Shown here: positions 4,555 through 23,686 of the stretch, in pieces
How positions within the stretch are numbered: the first letter of the stretch is position 1
Layout: each line of letters opens with the position of its first letter
Notes under the pieces: model-generated
The model's database searches: none
The model's input: the letters and a program-made list of their open reading frames with translations, nothing else
Told to the model about the DNA's origin: nothing
NCBI GenBank assembly: GCA_964505635.1
Contig: CAZDIP010000002.1
Location: 37,736 to 101,735 of the forward strand
Direction of reading: 5' to 3'
DNA from: an uncultured Candidatus Saccharibacteria bacterium
GTDB lineage: Bacteria; Patescibacteriota; Doudnabacteria; UBA920
Length of the DNA stretch: 64,000 bases
Translations under genes and position numbers: made by a program

Positions 4555-4691
4555 TTGGTATATTGCTTTCTCCGTATCCGCCTAAACACGTTAAACGAAA
4601 ACAGCTATTACTTTTCCTAAACTTAACCCATGTCTCCTTTAAAAAAATTTCTGCTGGGTTATAATTATTATTCAACCTCATAAATCAAAAA

Positions 4692-5201
4692 TTATTGTCG
4701 CTTATTTATTATTACCTGGCTCGGACGAATTACTTTTCCGTTCAATTCAAATCCGCTTTGAAGTTCTTCCACCACCATCCCATCATCTTCCCCTTCCACC
4801 TCTCTTACCGCTTCGTGGAAATTGGGGTCAAACTTTTTTCCAACCGCTTCTATTTTCTTTACGCCCAATTCGCCCAAAGTTTTGTCTAGCTGGGAAAGAA
4901 TGCCGTTCATCCCGGTAAACCAGTTATCATACTGTTTCCAAAACTCATCTTCGCCCTTAGCCCTTAGCCCTTCACCCTTTGGCAAATGCTTTAAAGCTTG
5001 CGCTAACGCGTCCAGCGTGGGCAAAAGCTTGGCTACGGTTACTTCGCGCGCGAATTCCACCAATTCCTTGTTTTCCGCTTCCTTCCTGCGCTTATAATTT
5101 TCAAAGTCAGCTAACGTACGTTTCCATTTTTCGGTAATATCGTCTAAATCGGTTTGCAGCTGGTCTAGGTTTTGGGAATCTTGTTGATTATCCTCATTCA
5201 T
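4692..5201 (-). CDS. grpE: Nucleotide exchange factor GrpE
   Basis: 169 aa; KRTLADFENYKRRKEAE and LLPTLDALAQAL match the GrpE core. Confidence 0.9.
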   Translation of the reverse strand: MNEDNQQDSQNLDQLQTDLDDITEKWKRTLADFENYKRRKEAENKELVEFAREVTVAKLLPTLDALAQALKHLPKGEGLRAKGEDEFWKQYDNWFTGMNGILSQLDKTLGELGVKKIEAVGKKFDPNFHEAVREVEGEDDGMVVEELQSGFELNGKVIRPSQVIINKRQ

Positions 5202-5319
5202 AAATTCGAAATTCTAATATCGAAATCCGAAACAATAATTAAATTATAAATTTTAAACATTTGAATTTGGAAATTCGATTTTGTTTCGAATTTCATGCTT
5301 CGTATTTCGGATTTAAACT

Positions 5320-6075
5320 TTATTTAATCATAAAAAATATAAAAATCGCAGCGCCTCCCCCAATTAACTTAGATATATATTCAAGCAGACTCATATTCTT
5401 CTCGTACTTCATACTCTTAGGCCCCACCACGCCAATTACGCCTTTTTTGCCGCTTGGCAATTGCAAACCTGAAACTACCATAGAGTAATCGCTATTTTTA
5501 GACAATGTAATTTCTTTTCCTATTTTGGCTTCCGGGCCCTTACCTGTATATTCCTGCATCATTTTTTCCGCGTGTTCGTCCAAATGGTCAAAAAACTGGG
5601 CAATCTCCTTTGCGTCTTCGGCCGGCAAATTCGGACTGTTTAAAATATTGGAAATTCCCACGGAAGAAACTTCGTCCGGGAAAAGCGCGAAACCTCCGGC
5701 TCCTGAATGTTCAGAAACCAACTTAGCCAAACGCCTGCCCATTTCCATATGAACTACCTGCAATTTAGCCAACTCCCTCTTAAGCCTATCCTGTTCCTGC
5801 AAAGTCAGTTTAACTTTATCCATTAACTGGTTTACAAAATACCGAAAACCTTTGTCGGTCGGGATACGGCCGGCAGAAGTATGCGGCTGCTGAATATACC
5901 CCATTTTTTCCAATTCCTGCATTTCGTTCCGAATGGTCGGCGCGGAAATGCCAAAATGGTACTTTTCAGCAAGCTCCTTACTGCCTACCGGTTCGCTGTT
6001 TTCGCAGTGCTCTTTAACAATAGCAGCCAGTATTTTTGCCTGCCTTTGGGATAATTTATTATCACTGTCTTGCAT
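5320..6075 (-). CDS. hrcA: Heat-inducible transcription repressor HrcA (short form)
   Basis: 251 aa; N-terminal winged-helix segment LSQRQAKILAAIVKEHCENSEPVGSKELAEKYHFGISAPTIRNEMQELEKMGYI is typical of HrcA; leads the grpE-dnaK-dnaJ cluster. Confidence 0.85.
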   Translation of the reverse strand: MQDSDNKLSQRQAKILAAIVKEHCENSEPVGSKELAEKYHFGISAPTIRNEMQELEKMGYIQQPHTSAGRIPTDKGFRYFVNQLMDKVKLTLQEQDRLKRELAKLQVVHMEMGRRLAKLVSEHSGAGGFALFPDEVSSVGISNILNSPNLPAEDAKEIAQFFDHLDEHAEKMMQEYTGKGPEAKIGKEITLSKNSDYSMVVSGLQLPSGKKGVIGVVGPKSMKYEKNMSLLEYISKLIGGGAAIFIFFMIK

Positions 6076-6076
6076 G

Positions 6077-6117
6077 AAGTGATAATACTATTATCACTCA
6101 AAGCTGTCAAGTGATAA
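6077..6117. promoter_or_regulatory. CIRCE-like operator: TTATCACTC-N9-AAGTGATAA (6091-6117) plus an extra AAGTGATAA half-site (6077-6085), immediately upstream of the hrcA start
   Basis: Compare canonical CIRCE TTAGCACTC-N9-GAGTGCTAA; each half-site differs at 1-2 positions and the 9-nt spacer is conserved. Confidence 0.5.
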
Positions 6118-6163
6118 CCCCATCTAACTAAAAAAATTAAATGTAAAGTATACTTGACATTAA

Positions 6164-6192
6164 AAAATATCTGTCATATTATTGTCCTATTA
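6164..6192 (+). promoter_or_regulatory. Sigma-70-like promoter (TTGACA-17nt-TATTAT) for the thioredoxin-like gene
   Basis: -35 at 6164-6169, -10 at 6187-6192, 17-nt spacer, about 45 nt upstream of the ATG at 6236. Confidence 0.45.
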
Positions 6193-6235
6193 AGACTTAT
6201 TAGTCCTAAGCAGGACAACAAAGGAAACAAACACT

Positions 6236-6847
6236 ATGAACAAAACTATTTGGATAATTCTTGCCGCGGTTATAATACTTGGCGGCGGGATAGCGCTTTA
6301 TGCCAATCAAAATTCAGGCAACAAGACTCAAACTAAAAATGACGTCATGATGCAAGATGACAGCGCTATGCAAAAAAAAGATGATGCTATGGTGAAAGAA
6401 GAAGGAATGATGGACAAAAAAGACGAAAGCATGATGGAAAACAAAGACTCAATGACAAAAGATGAAAGTGCGATGATGAAAGAAGATGATAAAATGTCCC
6501 CTAAAGCGGGATCCGCCTCCGGCGAAATGGAAGCAAAACCAGGACTTTACACAGACTACTCCTCCTCAAAACTTGCCGAAGCCAGCGCAAACGGCAAAGC
6601 TGTATTGTTCTTTTGGGCTAGCTGGTGCCCCTTTTGCAAAGCCGCCAACGAAGCGTTTTTGTCCCGCGCCTCAGAAATCCCTTCCGGCGTAACCGTGCTT
6701 AAAACCAACTATGATACGGAAAAAGATCTTAAAGCCAAATACGGCGTAACTTACCAGCATACTTTTGTGCAAGTGGATGCACAAGGCAATATGCTTAGCA
6801 AATGGAACGGCGGGGACATTGATTCGCTAAAAGCGAATTTAAAATAA
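6236..6847 (+). CDS. Membrane-anchored thioredoxin-like protein with Met/Asp/Lys-rich low-complexity linker
   Basis: 203 aa; N-terminal transmembrane helix; linker MMQDDSAMQKKDDAMVKEEGMMDKKDESMMENKD...; thioredoxin fold with WCPFC active site. Confidence 0.8.
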   Translation: MNKTIWIILAAVIILGGGIALYANQNSGNKTQTKNDVMMQDDSAMQKKDDAMVKEEGMMDKKDESMMENKDSMTKDESAMMKEDDKMSPKAGSASGEMEAKPGLYTDYSSSKLAEASANGKAVLFFWASWCPFCKAANEAFLSRASEIPSGVTVLKTNYDTEKDLKAKYGVTYQHTFVQVDAQGNMLSKWNGGDIDSLKANLK

Positions 6848-6918
6848 ATATTGTTCGAGCGAAGTCGAGAACCAATAAAAAATTTTCTTCTCCACTTTGG
6901 TCGAAAACTAAAATTTTT

Positions 6919-7632
6919 ATGCTACAACTTTTATTTGCTGTACTTGCCGGCATGCTCACTGTGGGCGCGCCATGCATACTCCCCCTCCTCCCAATTCTTT
7001 TGGGCGCCAGCGTAGGCCAAAACAGCAAGACCAGGCCATTATTTATAGCCTTTGGATTCATATTTACTTTTTCATTGGCAGGCTTGTTTTTATCAGCCCT
7101 AGTGCAAAGTTTTATGATAGCGCCCGACGCCTTAAGAAATGCCGCAGTTTTTATGCTCGGCCTATTCGGCTTACTGCTTTTATGGCAAACGCCTTTTAAA
7201 AAACTGGCTGTTTATTTATCCGGCGCCGTTACCAGCGCAAGCTCGGCCGCAGGGCAAGCAGGCAGCGGAAACTTGGGGGGATTTGTTTTAGGAGCGCTCT
7301 TAGGCATAATTTGGACGCCTTGCGCCGGGCCGGTTTTAGGAAGCATATTAACTTTAATAGCCACTCAAGCCGACCAGGTCCGCGCGACTATATTAATAGT
7401 CGCTTACGCGCTTGGAGCGGGAATTCCAATGGTTTTAATTGCCTACGGCGGCCAATATATTACCCAAAAAGTCAGATGGCTGGCCAATTACTCGGAAGCT
7501 TTGCAAAGAATTTTTGGAAGTCTTATTATTGCCCTGGCCATAGCCATGTACTTTCAGTACGACTTAATTTTGCAGGCGAAATTATTGGAATTTTTTCCTG
7601 CCTGGAATTTAGCTAACCTAATTAAACTTTAA
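6919..7632 (+). CDS. ccdA: Cytochrome c biogenesis / disulfide-electron transporter CcdA (DsbD family transmembrane domain)
   Basis: 237 aa polytopic protein; conserved Cys pair in transmembrane helices (GAPCILPLLP ... TPCAGPVLG). Confidence 0.85.
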   Translation: MLQLLFAVLAGMLTVGAPCILPLLPILLGASVGQNSKTRPLFIAFGFIFTFSLAGLFLSALVQSFMIAPDALRNAAVFMLGLFGLLLLWQTPFKKLAVYLSGAVTSASSAAGQAGSGNLGGFVLGALLGIIWTPCAGPVLGSILTLIATQADQVRATILIVAYALGAGIPMVLIAYGGQYITQKVRWLANYSEALQRIFGSLIIALAIAMYFQYDLILQAKLLEFFPAWNLANLIKL

Positions 7633-7751
7633 AAATAAATATACATGAGTCCCAAAACTTCCCATTTCGAGTGAAACGAGAAATCCCTTAAAGCTTAAGC
7701 CCGTATGTTTAAGCGATTCCTCACTACGTTCGGAATGGTTTACACGGATTT

Positions 7752-8801
7752 TTGGACCCATGTAAATATAGAATGAAATATTTACCATACATATTAATTG
7801 CTTTAGTGATTTTTTTAGCCGCCGGTTTTTATTTAGACCGAGCTAACCGCTATACAGAGCCAGTCCCGCTTACCATTGATTCCAGTTCAAACAATATAAA
7901 TAAACTTATGCCCACGGAGTTAAAAAATTATGGCCCGGCGCCTGAATTTAAAGGCATCACCAAATGGCTTAATAGTGACCCGTTAACCCTTGAAGACTTA
8001 AAAGGCAAAGTTGTTTTAGTAGATTTTTGGACATACTCATGCATAAACTGCATTCGCACCTTGCCTTACGTAACCAAATGGTACGACACTTATAAAGACC
8101 AGGGCCTGGTAATTGTAGGCGTGCACACTCCTGAATTCGCTTTTGAAAAAGTAACCGAGAACGTGCAAACGGCAATAAAAAGATTTAACATAAATTACCC
8201 GGTAGCGCAGGACAATGACTTTCAAACCTGGAATGCCTACTCAAACCGCTATTGGCCCGCGCATTATTTAATAGATAAAGAAGGCAACGTAGTTTATACG
8301 CATTTTGGCGAAGGCAATTACGGTATTACCGAAAACAATATCCGCTATTTGCTCGGCCTAAATTCCCCCGCAAATACCAAAAATCCGACCTTCGGAAAAG
8401 TGGGAAGCCCTGAAATGTATTTTGGCTTAAGCCGCTTGGAAAATTTGAGTTCAAAACAAACAGCCTCGTCTCACCCAAATATTTATAATTTTCCCGATCA
8501 TTTAAAATTAAATGAATTCGCTTTAAACGGAGAATGGAAATTTGAAAACGAAAAAACCGTACTAACAAAAGGATCGGGAATTATTCGCTTAAAATTTAAA
8601 GCCGGCAAACTGCATATGGTAGCCTCGTCAGACAAGCCGCAAGACTTAAAAATTACTGTTGATGGAAAAATTAAGGCAGCTGTGAAAGTTCAGATGTCCG
8701 AGCTTTATACCTTATTTGATTCCAACGATTATTCGGAGCATACTATAGATATAGAAATTCCCGAAGCCGGTTTTGAGGCGTTTACTTTTACATTCGGATA
8801 G
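7752..8801 (+). CDS. TlpA/ResA-like thiol-disulfide oxidoreductase with about 140-aa C-terminal extension (DipZ C-terminal-like); likely true start at the Met near 7773
   Basis: Transmembrane anchor; VVLVDFWTYSCINCIRTLPYV (CxxC redoxin); the CcdA + redoxin + C-terminal domain architecture mirrors mycobacterial DipZ split into two genes. Confidence 0.8.
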   Translation: MDPCKYRMKYLPYILIALVIFLAAGFYLDRANRYTEPVPLTIDSSSNNINKLMPTELKNYGPAPEFKGITKWLNSDPLTLEDLKGKVVLVDFWTYSCINCIRTLPYVTKWYDTYKDQGLVIVGVHTPEFAFEKVTENVQTAIKRFNINYPVAQDNDFQTWNAYSNRYWPAHYLIDKEGNVVYTHFGEGNYGITENNIRYLLGLNSPANTKNPTFGKVGSPEMYFGLSRLENLSSKQTASSHPNIYNFPDHLKLNEFALNGEWKFENEKTVLTKGSGIIRLKFKAGKLHMVASSDKPQDLKITVDGKIKAAVKVQMSELYTLFDSNDYSEHTIDIEIPEAGFEAFTFTFG

Positions 8802-8890: not shown

Positions 8891-9103
8891 TTGGCCTCGG
8901 ATCTAAAAATGATTTTAAACAACATTCGCAAATTCAGGGAAGAAAAAAGCCTTACCCAGGAAGAACTGGCCAAGGCGGTTTTTGTTTCCAGGCAAACCAT
9001 TAACGCTATGGAAAAAGGCAATTACGAACCAAGCTTGGGACTAGCCTTAAAAATTGCCGGTTTTTTTAAAATGCCGATTGAAGAAATTTTTAAAATAAGA
9101 TAG
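8891..9103 (+). CDS. XRE-family helix-turn-helix transcriptional regulator
   Basis: 70 aa; LTQEELAKAVFVSRQTINAMEKG helix-turn-helix. Confidence 0.8.
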   Translation: MASDLKMILNNIRKFREEKSLTQEELAKAVFVSRQTINAMEKGNYEPSLGLALKIAGFFKMPIEEIFKIR

Positions 9104-9158
9104 TCAATGCTTGTTAAAATGTTAGTATGTTATTATGATTAAATGTTAAAATGATTAT

Positions 9159-9521
9159 ATGAAATCTATCATCTACTACCTTTTGCTTTTAATACTTATT
9201 GCGCTTACGGCCGGGTTTATGCTGTCTGAACCTATGGATAAAATGACTATGCCGCAAATGCTTTCGGTCAGCGTAGTTTTAGTCATATATTCAATCGCTA
9301 TTTCCTTAGTCGGCGAAACTAACAACCAAGACGAACGCGATATTATGCATAGAAATTTGGCCAACCGCTATGCTTTAATTTCAGGTACTGTGGTATTTTC
9401 TTTGGGACTGATTTATCAAATGTTTATAACCCACGCTTTAGACTGGTGGCTTTTGGCAGGACTTATTACCATAAACCTTACAAAAATTATTAGCTTAATA
9501 TATTTTAACTACAGAAAATAG
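9159..9521 (+). CDS. Small membrane protein paired with the XRE regulator
   Basis: 120 aa, three to four transmembrane helices, 55 nt downstream of the XRE gene. Confidence 0.5.
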   Translation: MKSIIYYLLLLILIALTAGFMLSEPMDKMTMPQMLSVSVVLVIYSIAISLVGETNNQDERDIMHRNLANRYALISGTVVFSLGLIYQMFITHALDWWLLAGLITINLTKIISLIYFNYRK

Positions 9522-9529
9522 TTTTCTGA

Positions 9530-11500
9530 TTAATTTTTCACTCTTTTCAAAGACATGTAAATTACGCCGAACAATAAAATTAAAACCCCAGGATAAATAA
9601 TCATTCTAAAATCCCGGGATTTTTGTATTTGTCCTGCATTTAAATTTGAATAACTCTCCGACAAATCCGAATTTTGTTTATCTGTTTGGCTTAAAGCTAA
9701 AATTTGAGTCTGTAAATCCGCCAAAACAGATTGCATCTCCAAAATTTTTGCCTGTAAATCTTTTACCTGATTAATCAACTGACCAGCTTGACTGCGACTC
9801 AAAATTGACTGGCTCTTGTCAGTGTTTGTTATATTTTCTTCTAACAAAGCCTTTTCCTCTTCATCGGTAGTGGCAGACAAAACCAACGCATTTGGCTCTT
9901 GTGGGGTCAGCTGGGTTGTCCAAGCATATTTTTCACCGTCCAGACTAGCATACGACATGCCGGCTTTGGCCACCGGATAGCTCACCTCAAAAACCAATCG
10001 GCCAAAAGCATCAAATAACTTCAAAGTTTGTCCGGCATTGCTTAAACGAGCAGGCAAGTCATCTTCATAAACGACAAAGTAAGCTTTGCCCGGCAAAATT
10101 GTGCCTTGATGAAAAACTTTTTTCCTCCCGCCCAAAGTTAGGGTCATACCTTCCAAATCTATATTTTGATCAGTCAGATTATAAAATTCCACAAATTCTT
10201 CCTGTTCGCCTTCAGGTCTCGGCAAAATTTCACTAATTACTATTTTGCTTATTTCAGAAACTTGATCGTTCGGCAAATTGCGAGTCGGAATGCCCCAACT
10301 CCACTTATTATCTTTATTTTTTATCCAGGACAAATTTTCTTCGGCATCTTCATAAATTACAGAATCCAGCATTTTTTTCTGCGGAGAAAAAAGTTTCAGC
10401 CTTTCCTGTCCGCTGTTATTTAAAATTAGAGACTCTTTAGGGAAGTCTATTGCCAAAACTCCCATTGGCGGGATCAAAAAGCCTTCCGGCACCGCCCATG
10501 CGGATTCAGTAAAATCATCTTTAATGCCATCGGCAAAATAATACCCGCTTAAAGTTACCGTCGCGTAACCGGGATTATAAACTTCCGCCCATTCCCTGCC
10601 CTGGTCTTCGCCCAAAGGATTGGGAAAAATTTCGTTAATTTGCAAAAAATTACTGCTTTGTAAAGTTTCGGGTGCAGAACCGCTAAAGGAAGACCCGCCA
10701 CCCCCGCCGGAATTGGAAAAATTTCTTATCGGAGGCTGCCAAACTCCGTTAACCAGCTCAAAAATCCCGTCATCATAAGCTTCGGCCAAATACGCCGCCT
10801 GGTCTGCAAGGCTGCTGTCTGAAAAATATAAATTAACTTCATCACCGCCAGTATTGTTCAAAGCAAATGCCTCGGCGGGTAAAATAATTTTTTTAGTCTC
10901 TCCCGGCAAAATACTGCCTGACAAAATATAGGCGCTGCTGCCCGGCCCTGTGCCGGTATTTTTGTCGTCAATAATCCAGCCGTTTAGCAGCACCGGTTTT
11001 TCTTCGCTGCTTTTTATTTCCACCCATTCATTACCTTCATCTGATCCGGTTGGATTGGGTAAAAATCTAAAAATTTTAATATTCATACTTGTTGTTAAAA
11101 ATTCAGGCTGAGCCGGAACCGATGCATTAATGGTAAAAACTCCTTCATTTAAGTCGGAATAGCAAAAACTTTTTCTGGCTGTTCCCAAAGCCATGGTCAA
11201 TACCGGATTTTCCAACAAACTCCCGCAGGGAGCTGTAGCCGGAGAAGAATAAAACTGTCCGCTTACAGAAGACGAAAGCAAACTGACCCGGGTGGTGGTA
11301 ACTGCATTGAATTTCAGACCTTCGTCAGTCTGCAATTCTACGGTAAACACCTCCGACATAGTTTCAGGTTTTACTTTTTGAGGCTCAGATATAATTTTTA
11401 TCTTTACAGCCTCCGTTGTCTGGGTCGTAAAATAAATCGCCGCAAACGCAAAGAAAACCAAAAGCCCGCGCATTTTGGAAATATCCTTTTTAATATTCAT
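9530..11500 (-). CDS. Secreted, C-terminally membrane-anchored surface protein with three lamin-tail domains (LTD)
   Basis: 656 aa; signal peptide; LTD signatures FLPNPTGSDEGNEWVEI, INEIFPNPLGEDQGREWAEVYN, ISEILPRPEGEQEEFVEFYN; coiled-coil; C-terminal transmembrane helix. Confidence 0.75.
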   Translation of the reverse strand: MNIKKDISKMRGLLVFFAFAAIYFTTQTTEAVKIKIISEPQKVKPETMSEVFTVELQTDEGLKFNAVTTTRVSLLSSSVSGQFYSSPATAPCGSLLENPVLTMALGTARKSFCYSDLNEGVFTINASVPAQPEFLTTSMNIKIFRFLPNPTGSDEGNEWVEIKSSEEKPVLLNGWIIDDKNTGTGPGSSAYILSGSILPGETKKIILPAEAFALNNTGGDEVNLYFSDSSLADQAAYLAEAYDDGIFELVNGVWQPPIRNFSNSGGGGGSSFSGSAPETLQSSNFLQINEIFPNPLGEDQGREWAEVYNPGYATVTLSGYYFADGIKDDFTESAWAVPEGFLIPPMGVLAIDFPKESLILNNSGQERLKLFSPQKKMLDSVIYEDAEENLSWIKNKDNKWSWGIPTRNLPNDQVSEISKIVISEILPRPEGEQEEFVEFYNLTDQNIDLEGMTLTLGGRKKVFHQGTILPGKAYFVVYEDDLPARLSNAGQTLKLFDAFGRLVFEVSYPVAKAGMSYASLDGEKYAWTTQLTPQEPNALVLSATTDEEEKALLEENITNTDKSQSILSRSQAGQLINQVKDLQAKILEMQSVLADLQTQILALSQTDKQNSDLSESYSNLNAGQIQKSRDFRMIIYPGVLILLFGVIYMSLKRVKN

Positions 11501-11573
11501 ATGTTTTTTGTTTCTTGCTAAGTAAGCTAACTATAAATAGTATGGCTCTAAAATCATGGTCGGTCAAATCAAA

Positions 11574-12161
11574 TTATTCCAAAAGCTCTGCCCTTACAAT
11601 ATAACGTTTCAATGCAGTTCCCAAAGGCCAGGAAGTCTGCAAAGTTAAAATTTTCTTATCTTCCGTATCCTGACTAAGTAAGTAAGTATCTTGCGAGGAA
11701 GCAATAAATTTTTCCTTAACTTCATAAGTAAAAATTTGCCCCGATTCGCTGCTTACAATAATTTTTGCGCCCAATTCTACTCTGGGCAAAAGCGCAAAAA
11801 CCGTCTTGTATTCGCCGGGCGAAACTTTTAAATCCGAGGAGTGGCCGAAAATATAGGAATTTCCGGTTTCACCAAACTTGGCGGTGTTCGGATAGTGTAC
11901 CACGCCATACCTTAAGGCCGATTGAAACAAATTTTCATTTACCGCATCTACATATACCACGGGTGCCTCTATGCCCAAGGTTGGTATTAAAAGACTGTTG
12001 GATAAAATTTTATCTTTTTCTGAAAGTAAAATTTCCGGCTTGAGACTATGCGGTCGCAAACTATGTTTTAAATTCAAAAATACAAATTGCCAGTTGAGTA
12101 ACAGAACCAGCAAAATTAAAAAGCCAAAGATTATAACAAGTTTTTTTAAAACTACCTTCAT
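11574..12161 (-). CDS. Sortase-family protein with Ser at the catalytic Cys position (TLQTSWP instead of TLxTC)
   Basis: 195 aa; transmembrane anchor; sortase His motif NSYIFGHSS, 70 residues later LTLQTSWP (codon TCC), then KRYIVRAEL (conserved Arg); LIPTLGIEAPVV β-strand typical of sortases. Confidence 0.65.
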   Translation of the reverse strand: MKVVLKKLVIIFGFLILLVLLLNWQFVFLNLKHSLRPHSLKPEILLSEKDKILSNSLLIPTLGIEAPVVYVDAVNENLFQSALRYGVVHYPNTAKFGETGNSYIFGHSSDLKVSPGEYKTVFALLPRVELGAKIIVSSESGQIFTYEVKEKFIASSQDTYLLSQDTEDKKILTLQTSWPLGTALKRYIVRAELLE

Positions 12162-12193
12162 TAAATCCCTTTCAATTACAGCACAGGCAGTTT

Positions 12194-13741
12194 CTAAAGT
12201 TTGCTGTTAAATTTATATGGTAAATTTACCATTAAAATAACAACTAAAAAAACTACTAGCAGGGCACCTGCGCTCACGCCGGTTCTGGGCAATTGCGTAG
12301 CCTGGCCTAACACCATAGGCTTGTTTTCCGGCAAACCGAAATTTGCCGCGCCCGGTTGGTTGGTAAAATCTCCTGCCACCTGTCCGCTTAGCGGCACAAA
12401 AGTACTGCCGCCGCTCCCCCCAGACCCTCCGCCGCCGGATCCGCCGCCGCCCTCATCTAAGCTGCTCGTGCAAATCTGTCCTTGGGGACAAACAACCTGA
12501 ATTTGAACGCCAGATGTATTATTGGACAAATTCGGATCAGCCTCGGCTGACTGAACTGTAGCCGTATTTACAATACTGGTTCCAACTGAGACACTACTTT
12601 TAACTTCGGCCAAAATGGTTAAACTTGCGCTGCTCCCACTTGCCAAATTGCCGACTGTCCAGACATTGGGAACAAAACCACCTTGTGTGGAAGTGGAAGA
12701 AATAAACAAAAGTTCTGGGGGTAATACATCTGTCATTATTACGTTTTCTGCTGTATTAGGACCACTGTTAGACACGCTAAAAGTATAAATTAAAGTTGAG
12801 CTGGCTGTGCTAGTAGGAGCGCTGACCGTTTTCAACAAACTTAGATCAGCTACACCACCGCTCCCACCGCCGCCAGACGAACACTCCCCGTCCGTACACC
12901 CGCCTGACCCTTCCACAAAACGATTGCCAAAATTTATATCTTCGGCTGTAAAATTGTCAACAAAAACTTCATATTTATAGCCTGCTCCGGCTCCTGGTAA
13001 AGTCTGCTGCCAATTGTTCTGCAAAACTTCCCGTACTGTGTAATTTCCAGCCGGCAAAAATTCAAACTCGTAAAATCCAGTGGTGGTGGCAGTGGTGGTA
13101 ATTTTTTCTCCAAAATCATAAATAGCATTGCTGTTCTGGTCAATGTAGATTTGCCAGCCGCCAAGGCCTATTTCCGAGTTATTTTTTACGCCGTCGCCGT
13201 TTAAATCGTTAAACTTAATGCCCTGTATAAAACCCTCGCCAAAAACTTCCACCGTATTGGTCGTAACTGTAATTTTGCACTCATAATCCCCGCCCTTAAC
13301 CACTATGCCGCCGTCATGAGCCTGGGCCAGCTGCCCGGAAATTCCAGGCACATTTAACTTTACCCGCCAGTTATCCGCATTATCTAAAATAGAACTTAAA
13401 CTTGAAGTGGCCAGTGTGTCAGGCTCATTGGGCAAATCAATGTTTTTTATTTCCAAAAACGGACATAAATTCTCTTTACCTCCGACTGCCTCTAAGACGG
13501 TGTTATAAGTCGCTTGCTTAGAAGAAGTATCCAGCTGGACAGTATATGTTCTGCTTAAATTCTCACCCGGGTAAACGTTGCCAAAAGGAATCGCGGTGTC
13601 TGAAACCAAAAGCACCTGCAAAGCCGCGTTAACTTTCAAAATATTGCTCTGCAGCAGGCTTAAAACTGCTATCAAAACAACACTGGCAATTGCTGCCGAC
13701 AGCTTAACCAAATATTTAGTTTTCATATTTAACTGTCTCAT
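12194..13741 (-). CDS. Cell-surface protein with LPRTG sorting signal, DUF11 and SdrD-B-like repeat domains and Gly/Ser linkers
   Basis: 515 aa; N-terminal signal; FGNVYPGENL TasA/camelysin-like motif; DUF11-like (NSGPNTAENVIMTDVLP); SdrD B-like (FNDLNGDGVKN); C-terminus TQLPRTGVSAGALLVVFLVVIL + KFNSKL. Confidence 0.75.
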   Translation of the reverse strand: MRQLNMKTKYLVKLSAAIASVVLIAVLSLLQSNILKVNAALQVLLVSDTAIPFGNVYPGENLSRTYTVQLDTSSKQATYNTVLEAVGGKENLCPFLEIKNIDLPNEPDTLATSSLSSILDNADNWRVKLNVPGISGQLAQAHDGGIVVKGGDYECKITVTTNTVEVFGEGFIQGIKFNDLNGDGVKNNSEIGLGGWQIYIDQNSNAIYDFGEKITTTATTTGFYEFEFLPAGNYTVREVLQNNWQQTLPGAGAGYKYEVFVDNFTAEDINFGNRFVEGSGGCTDGECSSGGGGSGGVADLSLLKTVSAPTSTASSTLIYTFSVSNSGPNTAENVIMTDVLPPELLFISSTSTQGGFVPNVWTVGNLASGSSASLTILAEVKSSVSVGTSIVNTATVQSAEADPNLSNNTSGVQIQVVCPQGQICTSSLDEGGGGSGGGGSGGSGGSTFVPLSGQVAGDFTNQPGAANFGLPENKPMVLGQATQLPRTGVSAGALLVVFLVVILMVNLPYKFNSKL

Positions 13742-13744
13742 AAT

Positions 13745-16582
13745 CTAGTTGGAAATTGGCGCTTCCGAAACCAACTGGTTGTCGGGGTTTTGTTCCGGCT
13801 CTTTTGCCGCGGAAACCTCGTCCAGGGGTTTTTCTGGAGACTCTTCTATTTTAACCGGCTCATCCGGTTTGGGCGCTTTAGGTGTGTTTGGCTCCTCCTC
13901 GGTTAAGGCTGGTTTTTGAGCGTCTTGTGTTAAATCAGAAGCAACGGTTTCTTCATCTGCCGCCTTTGTGTCAATAATTTCTGGCTCAGCCGGCTCTGTA
14001 GCTGGCTCTTGGTTTAAAGCCGGCTCTAAACTTATGTCAGGCACAGCGCTTGCCATAACCTCTTCTTCCGAAGGCTCAGAGTCAAACACAATGCTGACGC
14101 TGGGCGCGGTATTTGAATCTATAAATTCGTCGTTGCTTTCCCCGGGGCTGGGATCGGGGTCTATCCAATTATTTGTTCCGTCAGGCATGCGGGTAAAAGA
14201 TTTGTTATCAGGCACGGATGCGCCGTAGTCGTAAGTTCTTTGGTCCACCAAAGAAGCTCCTTGCCAAAAATGTCCGTTGTAAAGCTTAACGGTATCGGTA
14301 CCGTCGTTGTCTAAATCAAAATCAGTGTCGCCCTCCCGATAAACAACCAAAAAACCGCCAGGTGCCACAGTTGTCGTGCCGGTATTGGTGTTTTCGGGTT
14401 TAATAAACAACTCATGGTAATTGTACAGGTTATAAGTAGCGCTTAAGCTGTCCAAACGCGCGTTATGCAAAGCGTCAGCACGAGTAAAAATAGCCTGCCA
14501 TTTTAAATACCTGCTATCCGGCAAGCCGGCAGCATTTAAATCCATGCCGCTTATATCGTCGCAAGCGCTAAAAGCGGAAAAATTCACCCCGTCGTTGGAG
14601 GTTGCGGCCTGAATGCAGACGTTACCGCTTAGGGAATTGCTTTCCGTCCAGGTTAAATTCTGCCAGTCAGCCCGATTGCCCTCGCCCGCGTCCAAAACCG
14701 TTTCTAAAGTACCGCTGCCAACCCCGCTTGAAAAAACCACGCTGCTTGAGCTGATTCCCAAATTAGAGGTTAAGCTGCTGCTCGCAAAATCCGAGTTGCT
14801 GGTCCAGGTTTTATTTTGTGCACTTCCCGGAGGTAGAAAATCATCGTACAAAACATAACCTTCCAAACTGAGCGGAGTGGAAGATCCATTATAAATTTCT
14901 ACAAATTCACCATCTAAACTGCCGCCAACACTACCTTGATCTGAGCCTGAAGGATTAGGTAAAAATTCATTTATCAACAACTGGTTTAAAGGGGAAAATA
15001 CCGGGCCGCAAGAAATAACTGAAGGTAATGGCCTGAAATTTACGGTCACGTTGCTGTCTAAGTCAATTGCGGGGCCGGTTAACGAAGTGCCTTCTTTTGC
15101 ATAAATTGCCAAAAGCGTACGGTTGGAATTAATATGCACATCCCCGCTTTGAGCGAAAAGTACCACGTCCCCAAGGTCAGAATTATTGCTTTCTGTTTCA
15201 ATGGCTGCGTCGTCGCCCGATTTGGGCAAAGAAGTGGAAATGAGCAAAAAAGTCCCTTTAGTGCCCGCGCCGTTAAATGCCACGTTGGCGCGGATGTCAA
15301 TTACCCCCTCCACAATAATTACGCCAAAGCTGTCGGCAAAAGCAGGATCCTGATTTATAACCACGTTGCTGTCTATTTTTAGATTACCATGCACATACAA
15401 AGTACCGTGCACATTTACTATATTATTGTTGCCAATTTCCAGGTTTCCCATAATTTCCGAAGGTCCCAAGTCTATAATTCCGCTGCTGCCTGGTATAACC
15501 AAACTTCCTAAAACCGTACCGCCGTCGTTGGCTTTGTCCTGCCAAAAAGCATTGTTAATTACCGGCAAGTCCTGGGCGGCTGACCCTGTGTTCGCACTCC
15601 CCGAAATAGTAAAGTTGCTGCTTTCTATGCTGCCGGAAACCGTCACGTCCCCGTTTATGTTTCGGTTTGCGCCTCCTCCGTTGGCTTCTAAATTATGATT
15701 GCCTTTTACTTGCCCGTTCACCGTAACATTAGCGGAAACATAAATATCGCCAAAGCTGTCGTTTGGTCCCGCAGCCATTAATGCTGTGTTTTCCGGGAAA
15801 TCAATATTTATTGGCTCGCACAAATCCGCCTGGGCAAACTGGTAAATTTTTATGTTAATCAGGCTAAAATGGCTGCCCACGCTGTCGCCGTCACAAGCCA
15901 CAGCCTTAACCACGCTGGTTTGGCTTACGGGCAAAGGCGGAATGGAATTTTTAAGGCCGCCGTTAGGGCCGCCGCAGTAAGGGTCGGAAAATACGTCCGG
16001 ATCAGTGCCTAAACCAACTGTATAAAAAATATGCGTGGCGTCTGAATCGCTGTCGCTAAATTCCACGTTAATGGAACTTGCGTAATTACCGCCGTCAGTA
16101 TTGTTCCAGCCAATATCCCCGGGCGGGGTTAAAACCGGCGGATCTATTTGCGCTAACGCGGCAGTGGTATTAATAATGTGCGCCTCAAAAGCCTGGAACA
16201 AAGGCAATAAAACCAAAACCGGAATTAATACCACGGCGGTATTATAAACGGTTTTAGATAAAAACTTTTTGAACAATGGTGGTTTTACCGTATTGGCCTG
16301 CGGCTTTAGTCCGTGGCGTTCGAAAATTTCCGCTTTTAAAACAGCCTCATTTACCACCCGCACCGGCACCCTCACTGCTTTTGGTTTTACTCTGCTAATT
16401 ACAAAGGGACTTACAATGCTTTTGTTATTTTTTGTCCTTACAATCTTTTTTACCACAGGCTTACCAACAAAAGTTTTTAAAGCCGCTGATTTTCGCTTTG
16501 CGGTCTTTGCCCGCGCCAAAACCAGACTTTTTTTCAAAGTCCTTGTTTTAACAACTTTTAATTGTTTGTCTTTTGCGGGCAT
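13745..16582 (-). CDS. Giant surface protein (945 aa): Lys-rich N-terminal tail, SipW-cognate-like signal/anchor, β-helix-like repeats, LTD domain, acidic Pro/Glu-rich C-terminus
   Basis: N-terminal roughly 100 aa Lys/Ala-rich; hydrophobic segment with FQAFEAHIINTTAALAQI (matching AFSAFEAHVINVTAR of the neighbouring genes); LTD motif INEFLPNPSGSDQG...EFVEIYN. Confidence 0.7.
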   Translation of the reverse strand: MPAKDKQLKVVKTRTLKKSLVLARAKTAKRKSAALKTFVGKPVVKKIVRTKNNKSIVSPFVISRVKPKAVRVPVRVVNEAVLKAEIFERHGLKPQANTVKPPLFKKFLSKTVYNTAVVLIPVLVLLPLFQAFEAHIINTTAALAQIDPPVLTPPGDIGWNNTDGGNYASSINVEFSDSDSDATHIFYTVGLGTDPDVFSDPYCGGPNGGLKNSIPPLPVSQTSVVKAVACDGDSVGSHFSLINIKIYQFAQADLCEPINIDFPENTALMAAGPNDSFGDIYVSANVTVNGQVKGNHNLEANGGGANRNINGDVTVSGSIESSNFTISGSANTGSAAQDLPVINNAFWQDKANDGGTVLGSLVIPGSSGIIDLGPSEIMGNLEIGNNNIVNVHGTLYVHGNLKIDSNVVINQDPAFADSFGVIIVEGVIDIRANVAFNGAGTKGTFLLISTSLPKSGDDAAIETESNNSDLGDVVLFAQSGDVHINSNRTLLAIYAKEGTSLTGPAIDLDSNVTVNFRPLPSVISCGPVFSPLNQLLINEFLPNPSGSDQGSVGGSLDGEFVEIYNGSSTPLSLEGYVLYDDFLPPGSAQNKTWTSNSDFASSSLTSNLGISSSSVVFSSGVGSGTLETVLDAGEGNRADWQNLTWTESNSLSGNVCIQAATSNDGVNFSAFSACDDISGMDLNAAGLPDSRYLKWQAIFTRADALHNARLDSLSATYNLYNYHELFIKPENTNTGTTTVAPGGFLVVYREGDTDFDLDNDGTDTVKLYNGHFWQGASLVDQRTYDYGASVPDNKSFTRMPDGTNNWIDPDPSPGESNDEFIDSNTAPSVSIVFDSEPSEEEVMASAVPDISLEPALNQEPATEPAEPEIIDTKAADEETVASDLTQDAQKPALTEEEPNTPKAPKPDEPVKIEESPEKPLDEVSAAKEPEQNPDNQLVSEAPISN

Positions 16583-16591
16583 GTAATAAAA

Positions 16592-17035
16592 TTATTTTTC
16601 TATATTTTGCAGTTTGGGCCCGAGGCTTCTGGCAATAACTCCGAAAAACGGAATTCTGAAAGGTTTGTCTTTTATGTAAACCATCCGTCCAACCACGTCT
16701 TTCGGGTTTACAGGCGCGTCTTCGGAATTGTTGGCGTCTCCTTTGGTAATCAGCATGCTGCCCTGTCTCCTTATAAGCCTGTGAATAGTAAAGCCCTGAG
16801 CGTTTTTATAAATAATTATTTGCCCCACTTTCGCTTCTTCTCCGCTTATGCCTTTCATTAAAATTAAGTCGTTGACTTTCAGCTGCGGCCACATGGAACC
16901 GGAAGTAATGGTGGCCAAAGGGTATGGAGTTTTTAAATAATGCGACAAAATTTTCGGGGTGTAATAAACAGCCAAACCGACAAATGCCAAATAAATAATA
17001 ATTTTTAAAACTCCTATCGCGATCTTTTGTAACAT
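16592..17035 (-). CDS. Type I signal peptidase, SipW/archaeal-ER type (S26B)
   Basis: 147 aa; transmembrane helix then ITSGSMWPQL (catalytic Ser in SGSMxP), conserved His in FTIHRLI, GDANNSED box; short single-domain form typical of SipW. Confidence 0.85.
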   Translation of the reverse strand: MLQKIAIGVLKIIIYLAFVGLAVYYTPKILSHYLKTPYPLATITSGSMWPQLKVNDLILMKGISGEEAKVGQIIIYKNAQGFTIHRLIRRQGSMLITKGDANNSEDAPVNPKDVVGRMVYIKDKPFRIPFFGVIARSLGPKLQNIEK

Positions 17036-17068
17036 TTGCTTATGAACGGGATTAAAAATTTTTAATTT

Positions 17069-17587
17069 CTACCATGGCTTGGGAATTTGGAAAACTATAA
17101 CTTTACCCCGATAGTAGCGGTATTCGGCAGAATTGGGAGTGCGGACAGTAAACTCCAGCTTTTCTCCCTGCCCGGATTTTAGCGTAAAATAATTTTTATC
17201 AACTTTCATTAAATCGCCAATCTCGCCGAATTTCCATACCATAATGTAACTGGAAACTTTGTACGGGCTTTGGTTGACCAAACTGACCGTCCTAACCGCG
17301 GTTTTGTCTTTGGGCAAGTCCCCAAAATCCAAACGCTCGCCGGTAGGGTTAACCCCTATTTTATCCGAATCAACCACCTGCACCAAAGCATCGTATTTTT
17401 CCGCGTTAACATACTGCACGGCCAGAAAAATAAACGCCAAAACCAGAATTATCCAAGCGGCCACGCGTTTTTTTGGCCTGGGTCTGGTTATCTCAGATTT
17501 TAATTCCGACAAAAATCCCCGCTGTTGCTCCCTTTCCATAACAGCCTTAGGCTTCATATGGCTGGGCATGTTTTCAAATGGATCCAT
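17069..17587 (-). CDS. Type II membrane-anchored accessory protein (hypothetical), immediately upstream of sipW-like
   Basis: 172 aa; cytoplasmic N-terminus, one transmembrane helix, about 110-aa extracytoplasmic β-rich domain; position analogous to TapA in tapA-sipW-tasA. Confidence 0.45.
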   Translation of the reverse strand: MDPFENMPSHMKPKAVMEREQQRGFLSELKSEITRPRPKKRVAAWIILVLAFIFLAVQYVNAEKYDALVQVVDSDKIGVNPTGERLDFGDLPKDKTAVRTVSLVNQSPYKVSSYIMVWKFGEIGDLMKVDKNYFTLKSGQGEKLEFTVRTPNSAEYRYYRGKVIVFQIPKPW

Positions 17588-17689
17588 AAATTTATATTGT
17601 TAAATAAAATTTGAAATTATTTGACAGGGTTAGCGTGCTTTCATCCCTCATCCCTGGCCCCAAAACAGGGCCAAAGGAAGCTATGAAAG

Positions 17690-19126
17690 CTAATTATTCT
17701 CGCAAACTGCCAAGCTGGCCAGTACGCTTTGCAGCAAAGTAAAGTCTGACGCGCTGTAGTAGTAAGAGGGCGCTGAGGCAACGGTGTTTTTTAAGAAGTC
17801 TTCAGTGCCCGCGGTTACGCCTACCCCGACCACATAAATCTTAATGCCGGCTGCTTTGGCCGCGGCGGCTGCCGCAGCTGCGTCGCCGCCCGCTGTGGGC
17901 TGGCCGTCGGTAATTAAGACTATAAAGTCAGGCGAGGTCGCGTCGTTACGGTCGCGCGCGCTCGCTAATTCAGCCGAGGCTGTATCCAAAGCCTGTTGCA
18001 AATTGGTCAAGCCGCCGGCTAAAAGAGCGTCTATGGCTGTATGAAGCGGCGTAGAAGAGCCGGTTAACTGCACGTCCAAAGTCGCGTCAGTGGAAAAACT
18101 GACCTGTGCGCCGTGAGGGCCAGTGTCGCTTAAACCCAAAGCCGTGACAAAGGCGTGAGCCGCTGTCTTCATGGTATTAAGTTCGGTGTCGCTTATGCTG
18201 CCGCTACGGTCTATAACCAAAGCTAAATCCAGCTGGTCGCTGCAAAGACCGCCGCCGGGCAAAGAAATGCCGGCCACTTCCACCCACAAATCACAGCCAA
18301 ACACTTTGTGTTCATTTTCTATAGGCTGGGTAAAAGCATTAGCCTGTTCCAAGGTGGTGTCTAAATTGCCGGTTTCCCTGCGGACAAAGTCCAGCCAGTC
18401 CTGGGCGCAATAGCCGCCAAAGCATGGTACGGCCAAATCTATCACCCACTTGTCCTGCGTATCCTGGTCTTGTTTGGACAAACGCCCCTTAGTGTCCAGC
18501 CAGGAAACCGTGCTGGTTCCCACCACAAAAGGCGTGTGGAAAGACTTGGTTACTTGGTCTACGGAAAGAGGTCCGTCTATATCCAGTTTTTCCCCGTCTT
18601 TGGAAATGTAGGGGCACAAGTTAGGCAGCAAACCCCAGCTTTCTGCTTCGTTTATATTAACTGTCTGAGTGTCGTCTACAGCTAAAACTCTGGGCGCTTC
18701 CCCGCAATCCCAGTAATAGCTTTCAACCACTTCGTTAGTGGAAGGGTCATCGCCGAATTTTACATGCGCGGTGCGCGTGTACATATGCGCGCCGTCCGGA
18801 CCTACTGAGTTGTCAAACGAACCGCCGTTGTTGGTGGTTATGGCGCACTTGGGTTTTTGGCGGATAAAGTATTCCACGTCGTCTACGCGGTTTTCCGCGA
18901 GGAAAGACGCGGACAAATTCACGTCAATGGTTTTTTCCAAATGCTCCTGCGGAAACACGGTGCCAAAATCCAAAAACTTGACCGGCACGTTAAGCGCGTT
19001 TTCTATCCTGGCCGTTACGTTTATAACGTGCGCTTCAAAAGCGCTGAAGGCCGCGGCGCCGGCGAGTATAACACCCAAAGTCCCGACGCCCAATATTAAT
19101 TTGTTGAGTATTTTTTTCATGTTCAA
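17690..19126 (-). CDS. Secreted vWA-domain protein with SipW-cognate-like signal peptide and Cys-containing N-domain
   Basis: 478 aa; LGVILAGAAAFSAFEAHVINVTARIENAL; FGTVFPQEHL motif; N-domain shared with the 19339-20181 paralogue; C-terminal vWA with MIDAS DRSGSIS and ITDGQPT. Confidence 0.8.
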   Translation of the reverse strand: MNMKKILNKLILGVGTLGVILAGAAAFSAFEAHVINVTARIENALNVPVKFLDFGTVFPQEHLEKTIDVNLSASFLAENRVDDVEYFIRQKPKCAITTNNGGSFDNSVGPDGAHMYTRTAHVKFGDDPSTNEVVESYYWDCGEAPRVLAVDDTQTVNINEAESWGLLPNLCPYISKDGEKLDIDGPLSVDQVTKSFHTPFVVGTSTVSWLDTKGRLSKQDQDTQDKWVIDLAVPCFGGYCAQDWLDFVRRETGNLDTTLEQANAFTQPIENEHKVFGCDLWVEVAGISLPGGGLCSDQLDLALVIDRSGSISDTELNTMKTAAHAFVTALGLSDTGPHGAQVSFSTDATLDVQLTGSSTPLHTAIDALLAGGLTNLQQALDTASAELASARDRNDATSPDFIVLITDGQPTAGGDAAAAAAAAKAAGIKIYVVGVGVTAGTEDFLKNTVASAPSYYYSASDFTLLQSVLASLAVCENN

Positions 19127-22555: not shown

Positions 22556-22852
22556 TAGGCCTCCTTCAAACTAACACGATTTGCCGCTTGCCTCCGGGCA
22601 GACTCGAGTTCTGCATACCCTGCCCAGAAGGCAAACAAAAGCTGCCTCTTGTTAGAAAACAGCCTTAAAGCATGTAAATTATACATAATTATAAACAAAA
22701 AATCAATCCTTGCCTTGACTAAGCGGCTCACATAAGTTACAATATAACGTTCAAAAAGGAGGAAACTAGCGAAATCTAGGAACTCGTTTTTGTCGTTCTG
22801 CCCCGCAGCGAGCAGGGCATACCAGAAACCAGAAAAAACAGGAGACACTCAA

Positions 22853-23686
22853 ATGAAGGCTTTTGCCTTTTTTATTTCTGTACTCGCGCTGGCGGTCACG
22901 CTCAGTGCTGCGCCTACAATCATGGTGGAAACCACCCTGGCACCCAATGCGTTTGGAAGCCCAAGCTATCCGGCCTGGGAAACCAACGCGGTCAACGCTA
23001 TGATTGGCGGCCTTACGAGCAATGGGACACCCGGCACCCCCACGTACTTCCAAACCCTGGGAGGACCCGTTCCGGCCTCCTGGTTGACTGTGACGTCCTT
23101 CCCATCCTGGCTCGGAACCGCCGACCCAGGAACTACCTTCGGACCGGCATTTGCAAGTGAACTCGGTAACAGAGGCGCGTTCCCACTCTACATCAACGGC
23201 AACGGAACACAATTCTCCATCAGCCAGCTCGCCTTCAACGCATTCAGCACCGACCCCGGCAATCTGCTCGGGTTCAGCTTTGCGGTTGGTTCGTACAACT
23301 ACGGAACTGGCTACGTCGGTATTCTGAAGGGTGGTGACAACACCCTCGGAACCGGTGACGACACCTTCATTACCGCCGGTCCCAATACGCAGATGGTCGA
23401 TGCACTTGCCGGAAGGGGAAGCGGCAACGCGCTCTGGCCGTGTGGACCGGGGGATCTCTCCCCCTGCGCCACAACCGCGGAACGCCAAGCTGCAATCGAT
23501 AGCATGGCAGCTAATATGGCAGGCTACTCCTTCACGGGCACCTACACGCTGATGGGTGCGACTGGCGGCGAGCTCGCAAGTGCGAGCGCAACCATCTACA
23601 CCGACGGAGAGGTTCCCGAGCCAGCCACTATGGGACTCATCGGTACCGCGCTCATCGGCCTCGCTCTGGTGCGCCGCCGCTCCTAA
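22853..23686 (+). CDS. PEP-CTERM sorting-domain secreted protein (GC-rich); start set at MKAFAFF, which is preceded by AGGAG
   Basis: Signal peptide MKAFAFFISVLALAVTLSAAP; C-terminus VPEPATMGLIGTALIGLALVRRRS; the ORF track's longer ORF begins at 22790. Confidence 0.75.
   Translation: MKAFAFFISVLALAVTLSAAPTIMVETTLAPNAFGSPSYPAWETNAVNAMIGGLTSNGTPGTPTYFQTLGGPVPASWLTVTSFPSWLGTADPGTTFGPAFASELGNRGAFPLYINGNGTQFSISQLAFNAFSTDPGNLLGFSFAVGSYNYGTGYVGILKGGDNTLGTGDDTFITAGPNTQMVDALAGRGSGNALWPCGPGDLSPCATTAERQAAIDSMAANMAGYSFTGTYTLMGATGGELASASATIYTDGEVPEPATMGLIGTALIGLALVRRRS

Follow-up and report, generated by a model that had tools for sequence, protein, structure and literature searches.

Both the definition and the classification of sortases rest on their being cysteine transpeptidases. 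Within the family, class D sortases serve a small dedicated set of substrates, with LPNTA as the class D signal and LAxTG as that of class E, and in canonical sortases the signal-binding floor is lined by a hydrophobic residue at position -2 of the nucleophile. One fold or one reaction can use either a Ser or a Cys nucleophile, and amines can resolve acyl-esters, as is well established for penicillin-binding proteins, which are serine transpeptidases whose acyl-ester is resolved by an amine. For S. aureus SrtA, the C184S replacement is reported in PMC4827206, which cites earlier work, to take away most of the activity and to leave the enzyme nearly inactive, and C184S is in use as a 'cys-less' background (PMC5578623). 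Since SrtA C184S loses most of its activity, a plain Cys-to-Ser swap is normally disabling. A natural Ser sortase, or a sortase fold with a Ser nucleophile, was not found reported in the full-text literature searched.

The window analyzed here is the whole 64-kb stretch of DNA, and all positions refer to it. It contains a gene for a protein with Ser at the place of the sortase nucleophile (Table 1), hereafter the Ser-sortase. The best sequence and structure matches to this protein were class D and E sortases (C. perfringens SrtD, 4d70; B. anthracis, 2ln7; Thermobifida/Streptomyces SrtE, 9j0t and 5go5), among which 4d70 matched the Ser-sortase profile with E=5.8e-13. Sortases of these two classes share the His...TLxT-X...Arg spacing with the Ser-sortase but all use Cys, and the signal of the Ser-sortase, LPRTG with a conserved upstream extension, is unlike the class D and E signals. 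When scored against NCBIfam (release 20), the protein reached 47.2 for SrtD (cut-off 140), 46.3 for class D (165), 37.6 for class E (160), 28.5 for class C (160), 25.4 for class F (166), and 30.3 for GN (158), and 34.3 for the generic model TIGR01076 (39.35). As no NCBIfam class model came near its cut-off, the Ser-sortase falls into none of the defined classes A-F and GN, and release 20 contained no model for the clade of Ser-type relatives described below. The class C lid motif DP[W/F/Y] was absent, the 195-aa sequence being without any 'DP' dipeptide.

Fold, motif register and the serine at position 177

The predicted protein matched Pfam Sortase (PF04203, MEROPS C60) with 80.7 bits (cut-off 26.6, E=9.4e-23) over profile positions 2-124 of 125. 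An AlphaFold model made with the homologue alignment as input (pLDDT 90.3, pTM 0.84) placed His107 just past strand 100-106, Ser177 just past strand 170-176 and Arg186 at the opening of the last strand, and in this prediction the 195-aa protein has the canonical sortase layout and strand order, in keeping with the eight-stranded beta-barrel of the family. In a Foldseek comparison of the model with the PDB, all of the 50 matches listed were sortases (classes A, C, D, and E), with target-normalised TM-scores of 0.51-0.77, and the best match was 4d70 (2.6e-12). Sequence, profile and predicted fold thus support the first-pass annotation in its reading of the product as a sortase-fold protein.

Table 1. 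Features of the Ser-sortase locus. Positions are those of the 64-kb window.
Feature	Position	Strand	Description and evidence
Downstream gene	9530..11500	-	656 aa; three lamin-tail domains, C-terminal TM; Pfam LTD E=4e-35
Ser-type sortase gene	11574..12161	-	195 aa; ORF, Pfam Sortase, AlphaFold, and Foldseek
Arg186 codon CGT	11604..11606	-	Conserved sortase Arg; invariant in Ser and Cys clades
Ser177 codon TCC	11631..11633	-	At catalytic Cys position; alignment register; Ser in 121/121
Gln175 codon CAG	11637..11639	-	Nucleophile -2, same strand; Gln in 113/114 Ser-clade sequences
Asp110 codon GAT	11832..11834	-	His+3, Ser-clade-specific residue; Asp in 107/114 Ser-clade sequences
His107 codon CAC	11841..11843	-	Catalytic His of FGH motif; invariant; aligns to sortase His
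N-terminal membrane anchor, residues 2-35	12057..12158	-	AlphaFold helices H2-22 and H24-35; hydrophobic KKLVIIFGFLILLVLLLNWQFVFL; topology inferred
Cognate substrate gene	12194..13741	-	515 aa; signal peptide, DUF11 domain and SdrD_B-like domain, linkers rich in Gly, sorting signal at the C-terminus
Hydrophobic C-terminal segment and tail with Lys	12197..12277	-	VSAGALLVVFLVVILMVNLPYKFNSKL; 27 residues; same architecture in 58/58 related substrates
Extended sorting signal PMVLGQATQ-LPRTG	12278..12319	-	LPRTG at 12278-12292; consensus P-x-V-L-G-A-T-T-E-LPRTG in 58 related loci
Upstream gene	13745..16582	-	945 aa; LTD and CHB_HEX_C; Pfam; ends 3 nt before substrate gene start

Along the sequence, a hydrophobic N-terminal anchor is followed by GNSYIFGH(107)SSD and, with the Ser 70 residues after the His, by ILTLQTS(177)WPLGTALKR(186)YIV. 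The sortase His in IFGHSS, reported in the first-pass annotation, was confirmed in the ORF translation, and the spacing to the nucleophile, which had been put at about 70 residues, was exactly 70 (His107 to Ser177). The KRYIVRAEL motif that had been taken to hold the conserved Arg was present as well, but the invariant Arg is R186 of KRY, and the Arg of IVRAEL varies among homologues. Measured against the features that define a sortase, a His at the end of strand beta4 was provided by His107 in FGH, a conserved Arg on strand beta8 by Arg186, and an LPXTG-type substrate with a hydrophobic segment and a positive tail by the product of the adjoining gene. The Cys of TLxTC at the end of strand beta7 was missing, with Ser177 in TLQTS instead.

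A Ser at this site could be an artefact, either of a TGC misread as TCC, the two codons being separated by a single base, or of a mis-registered alignment that hides the real Cys. In HMMER alignments to solved sortases, Ser177 was found paired with the Cys of TIVTC (4d70), TLVTC (8t28), and TLTTC (2ln7), and a profile built from 49 homologues gave the same register and matched 32 solved sortase sequences. The observation that a TCC-encoded Ser stands where TLxTC has its catalytic Cys was thus borne out by single-sequence as well as profile alignments, although the codon had been placed at about 11617-11619, which is wrong by about 14 nt. The whole protein contains no cysteine (0 in 195 aa), so that no displaced Cys can lie in the active-site strand, and the catalytic domain was Cys-free in 85% of 232 clade members. 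As to whether orthologues carry Cys or Ser, a search of 5.8 billion proteins gave 826 relatives, of which the 120 closest, at 45-99% identity and, if named, under the labels Candidatus Doudnabacteria or Patescibacteria, had Ser without exception, so that Ser was found in 121/121 sequences of the alignment; these homologues came from many independent samples. In addition, a 1180-bp contig of a separate Logan assembly (SRR16481187) showed 100% identity to the window DNA, TCC included.

The Ser codon was readable in 78 related loci, of which 75 had TCT, TCG, TCC, or TCA and three had AGC or AGT, which makes six different Ser codons. The three AGY lineages showed 57-60% identity to TCN-bearing sequences compared to 49-52% among themselves; being nearer to TCN sequences than to each other, they indicate that Ser was kept through at least three independent codon-family switches. 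The two doubts raised in the first-pass annotation, a single-base assembly error and a mis-registered motif with a Cys elsewhere, are already refuted by these comparative data, and we see practically no room for an artefact of either kind. Its alternative of a natural Ser variant, here under selection, is strongly supported by Ser in 121/121 and by the use of both codon families.

Extent of the Ser clade and comparison with its Cys-type sister clade

In a scan that took a single genome for each GTDB species, relatives were found in 167 genomes, and 80 loci were retrieved. The scan is biased in that its search patterns included the Ser motif. Record titles named Doudnabacteria, Patescibacteria group, Kazan, and Yanofskybacteria, many were the generic 'uncultured Saccharibacteria', and a few read 'Gammaproteobacteria' or 'Binatia', which are unverified. 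Searching 1.84 billion cluster representatives exhaustively with HMMER yielded 3868 matches at E<=1e-3. Among the best 150 of these, the first about 100 were Ser-type and Cys-type sequences occurred from E of about 1e-25 onward; wherever a 50%-identity cluster representative had its motif intact, the nucleophile site was Ser or Cys and nothing else. Judged from these searches, the Ser clade is a large, previously undescribed group of putative sortases in the ultra-small Patescibacteria/CPR bacteria.

A neighbour-joining tree calculated with the motif columns removed divided 114 Ser and 23 Cys sequences into two clean groups. Ser-clade sequences shared a mean identity of 45% and Cys-clade sequences one of 40%, compared to 39% across the two groups. 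In this tree the Ser clade is monophyletic, with Cys-type Patescibacteria sortases as its nearest relatives. Homologues of the Cys representative P0224 comprised 115 Cys and 2 Ser sequences, from Patescibacteria where named. The Cys-type sortases resemble the Ser type in length, in their N-terminal anchor, in about 39% domain identity, in the invariant GN..FGHSS, T-x-P-x-GT, and K-R, and in the same phylum-level host range, and have GHSS[N/Y] ... TLMTC[W/T/V]PxGT as motifs of their own.

Residues N101, G106, H107, S108, S109, T176, P179, G181, and R186 were common to both clades. Within the Ser clade, H107, P179, and R186 were invariant (His107 and Arg186 in 114/114 sequences each, and the His also in 23/23 of the Cys sister clade), N101, S108, S109, T176, and G181 were at least 96% conserved, and the signature TLQTS[YW]PxGTAL was near-invariant among the 120 closest of the 826 relatives. 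The differences between the clades, besides Ser or Cys at position 177, concerned position 175 (-2 of the nucleophile, on the same strand face), with Gln in the Ser clade and Met, Ile, or Val in the sister clade; position 110 (His+3), with Asp compared to mostly Asn or Tyr; position 178, with Tyr or Trp compared to Trp, Thr, or Val; and position 183, with Ala compared to Asn or Thr (counts for the Ser clade in Table 1). The -2 residue was Ile or Val, not Gln, in the aligned solved sortases as well. Exceptions to Asp110 were five Asn among the 114 Ser-clade sequences and P0185, which has GHSAG, and an Asp at His+3 was present in 2/23 sister sequences and in 9/115 of the P0224 homologues. One further sequence, P0239, combines a Ser nucleophile and GHSSD with Val rather than Gln at -2 (TLVTSYPINS), and may be early-branching or intermediate between the Cys and Ser active-site configurations.

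The adjoining LPRTG gene and its genomic context

The stop of the adjoining gene and the start of the sortase gene are 32 nt apart. Its product matched DUF11 (E=1.7e-27) and SdrD_B (E=2.8e-8) in Pfam and has the C-terminus ...PMVLGQATQLPRTG-VSAGALLVVFLVVILMVNLPYKFNSKL; the LPRTG sorting signal that the first-pass annotation had noticed in the neighbouring gene is indeed at its end, and the 27 residues after it are mostly hydrophobic, with a Lys in the tail. No LPXTG-type protein other than this product was present in the 64-kb window, and no sortase, of Cys type or otherwise, besides the Ser-sortase. A second sortase was found in only one of the 80 related loci (L019), and this was also Ser-type.

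An LPxTG-ending gene was present directly upstream on the same strand in 58 of the 80 related loci, with a gap of mostly <100 nt, and for several related loci without a substrate gene the sequence ends just upstream of the sortase. A homologue of the window substrate gene was upstream of the sortase in 38 of the 80. The X of LPxTG in the 58 loci was Arg in 52, Val in three, Lys in two, and Gly in one. Before the motif, the consensus P-x-V-L-G-A-T-T-E was found, the scissile Thr-Gly was conserved in 58/58, and after the motif there was Pro at +2 and a total of 20-33 residues forming a hydrophobic stretch and a K/R tail (58/58). The ectodomains of the related substrates ranged from 200 to 1900 aa and contained SdrD_B, SpaA-like, DUF11, and PA14, which are typical adhesin modules. 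That Asp110 reads the Arg of LPRTG was considered but is not supported: LPVTG, LPKTG, and LPGTG loci keep the Asp, and the sole D110N locus has LPRTG, albeit in a small sample. As Asp110 does not track this Arg, a catalytic role is weakly favoured over one in recognition.

In three cluster representatives, P0139, P0142, and P0149, substrate and enzyme were found fused into one ORF comprising adhesin domains, LPRTG, TM, K/R, TM, and Ser-sortase. The fusions P0139 (L089:3001-5760) and P0149 (L090:3001-5022) were in frame on their contigs, each on one contig only. From the order of these parts, the LPRTG signal and the catalytic domain are both inferred to be extracellular, an arrangement that implies self-processing in cis, provided that catalysis, itself inferred, takes place. 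At L019:4666-7974, two tandem Ser-type sortases were present (5992-6606 and 7069-7974), with LPRTG proteins before each (4666-5952 and 6692-7003). Each of the two has its own preceding LPRTG protein, and the two-gene module has therefore been duplicated.

No sorting-signal ORF was found within 6 kb of five Cys-type relatives (0/5). The Cys-type sortases of loci L081 and L085-L088 lay at conserved places among housekeeping genes, such as a position after rplJ-rplL, sua5-glyA-sortase-PEGA protein-murA, and ychF-relA-sortase-ligA. This suggests a general 'housekeeping' role of the Cys-type Patescibacteria sortases, unlike the substrate-linked Ser clade. The only gene content common to these housekeeping contexts and the window was ychF.

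The substrate-sortase pair is flanked in the window by two genes for large membrane-anchored lamin-tail proteins without a sorting signal (9530..11500 and 13745..16582, both on the minus strand), of which the upstream one is probably co-transcribed with the substrate gene. Homologues of the upstream gene were found in 6/80 related loci and of the downstream gene in none of the 80. A larger conserved operon was rejected, as LTD, Xre-like, and thioredoxin/DsbD genes lay beside the sortase in only 0-6 of the 80 loci, and the conserved unit is the substrate-sortase pair only. A promoter and terminator scan of positions 9000-17800 gave counts close to the shuffled expectation, and operon boundaries were left undefined by these counts.

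Just beyond the operon, at 6236..8801(+), is a cluster of extracytoplasmic thiol-redox genes, which encode a protein like thioredoxin, a membrane protein of the DsbD/CcdA type, and a redoxin that contains Thioredoxin_10. The cluster is not a conserved neighbour of Ser-sortases in other loci; a homologue of the redoxin gene (7752..8801(+)), the sole thiol-redox gene compared, was present in 4/80 Ser-sortase loci. Elsewhere in the window, an ORF at 22790..23686(+) has a signal-peptide-like start (MKAFAFFISVLALAV...) and the end VPEPATMGLIGTALIGLALVRRRS, and matched PEP-CTERM (PF07589) with 28.6 bits (cut-off 20.7). GC3 in this ORF was 0.66 compared to 0.38-0.43 in the sortase operon, with a local GC of about 0.50. 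An exosortase-type signal is unexpected in a Patescibacteria-like contig, and horizontal transfer or a chimeric assembly is possible.

Proposed activity, rival readings and known systems

We consider it fairly probable that the gene encodes an active Ser-His(-Asp) sortase which serves a single adhesin encoded next to it. Catalysis, the geometry of the triad, and the acceptor are inferred in this reading, as distinct from the fold, the motif register, the strictly conserved and the co-varying residues, and the pairing and fusion of the genes, which are established. The Ser-type sortase, the activity of which is untested, would probably anchor the adjoining or fused LPRTG surface protein by serine chemistry. 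After secretion, the substrate would stay in the membrane through its hydrophobic C-terminal segment and K/R tail, and its extended PxVLGATTE-LPRTG signal would be bound by the sortase domain. Asp110 probably orients His107, which would deprotonate Ser177 in the inferred Ser-His-Asp arrangement, and attack by Ser177 on the Thr-Gly bond would then produce an acyl-ester intermediate. Substrate and oxyanion would be stabilised by Arg186 and possibly also by Gln175, which is specific to the clade; the hydrophobic -2 residue lines the signal-binding floor in canonical sortases, and a Gln in its place may therefore help to position the hydroxyl or the oxyanion. Finally, the ester would be resolved by an amine, most likely of a peptidoglycan precursor side chain, by which the protein would become covalently linked to the wall. 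It counts against this reading that Asp110 is not absolute in the Ser clade and that a minority of the Cys relatives also have Asp.

In the main rival reading, the Ser is retained in a catalytically dead protein that binds PxVLGATTE-LPRTG as a dedicated chaperone, retention factor, or scaffold without forming an acyl-enzyme; such a protein might keep the adhesin at the membrane or offer it to a different enzyme. This would agree with the strongly lowered activity reported for S. aureus SrtA upon a Cys-to-Ser change (PMC4827206). Groove conservation, gene pairing, and fusions could be explained by binding alone, the TM segment and K/R tail of the substrate could anchor it without cleavage, and the conserved pairing and fusion are equally compatible with a non-catalytic binding role. 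In pseudoenzymes, however, the catalytic residues are usually lost or varied, whereas here Ser was kept in 121/121 sequences and across independent TCN/AGY switches. A functional sortase fits better than a decayed one because the Ser never drifts to Ala, Gly, or Thr while His and Arg are invariant (114/114 each), because conservation in the Ser clade is no lower than among its Cys relatives, and because the scissile Thr-Gly is conserved in 58/58 substrates and the changes that distinguish the clade, with the Asp at His+3 and the Gln at -2, are grouped round the nucleophile and not scattered. We therefore regard a dead protein as unlikely, if too plausible to be set aside.

Retained catalysis need not mean transpeptidation, and the enzyme could be a serine endopeptidase that cuts LPRTG between Thr and Gly by hydrolysis, so that the adhesin is released or matured for S-layer or filament assembly. 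Such a reading arises since aminolysis proceeds less readily with oxy-esters, which in general chemistry are less activated than thioesters; it can draw on the same evidence of retained catalysis as an active sortase, and in the substrate-sortase fusions it would need self-cleavage in cis only. Yet no evidence here separates water from an amine as acceptor, the resolution of an acyl-ester by an amine has a precedent in the penicillin-binding proteins, and the substrates resemble typical wall-anchored adhesins (SdrD_B, SpaA, DUF11, PA14). We find hydrolysis without transfer quite improbable. As for the active sortase that we prefer, it is favoured by the co-varying residues of the active site and by the conserved pairing and the fusions of the genes, and the choice between an active enzyme and a scaffold is not settled computationally. 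It is weakened by the lack of biochemical data on any member of the clade and by the fact that a Cys sortase in the same genome is not excluded.

Our judgement leans, if only slightly, toward the view that the Ser clade is the first natural non-cysteine sortase class, i.e., a monophyletic Patescibacteria-wide lineage with an active site re-tooled to Ser-His(-Asp) and Gln, which forms a surface-anchoring module of one enzyme and one substrate, sometimes fused and self-processing, that acts via an acyl-ester. If true, this would show cleanly how a nucleophile can be switched while the fold stays the same, and the path of the switch could be reconstructed from the extant Cys relatives and the possible intermediate P0239. 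It would also offer protein engineering a ligase scaffold that has no thiol, is insensitive to oxidation, and recognises a long, defined signal, and cysteine-directed sortase inhibitors as well as annotation rules based on a 'catalytic Cys' would miss part of the family. For CPR biology, a specific variable adhesin per organism, displayed via a dedicated enzyme, is a testable handle on the attachment of episymbiont to host. The relevance for enzymology, protein engineering, and CPR surface biology is high, tempered by the lack of activity data.

Among known systems, S. aureus SrtA C184S is like the Ser177 enzyme in having the same replacement at the same structural position, but it is without Gln175, Asp110, and Tyr/Trp178, which in the natural Ser clade are fixed beside the nucleophile. 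Precedents for both nucleophiles are given by penicillin-binding proteins compared to L,D-transpeptidases and by the Ser/Cys interchange in chymotrypsin-fold proteases, yet these concern unrelated folds (penicillin-binding proteins) or a different reaction. The Ser clade has the sortase fold and sortase-type substrates, together with an extended signal of its own and a gene arrangement of one enzyme per substrate, and keeps the His and the Arg, but fails the family-defining criterion of a catalytic Cys throughout the lineage.
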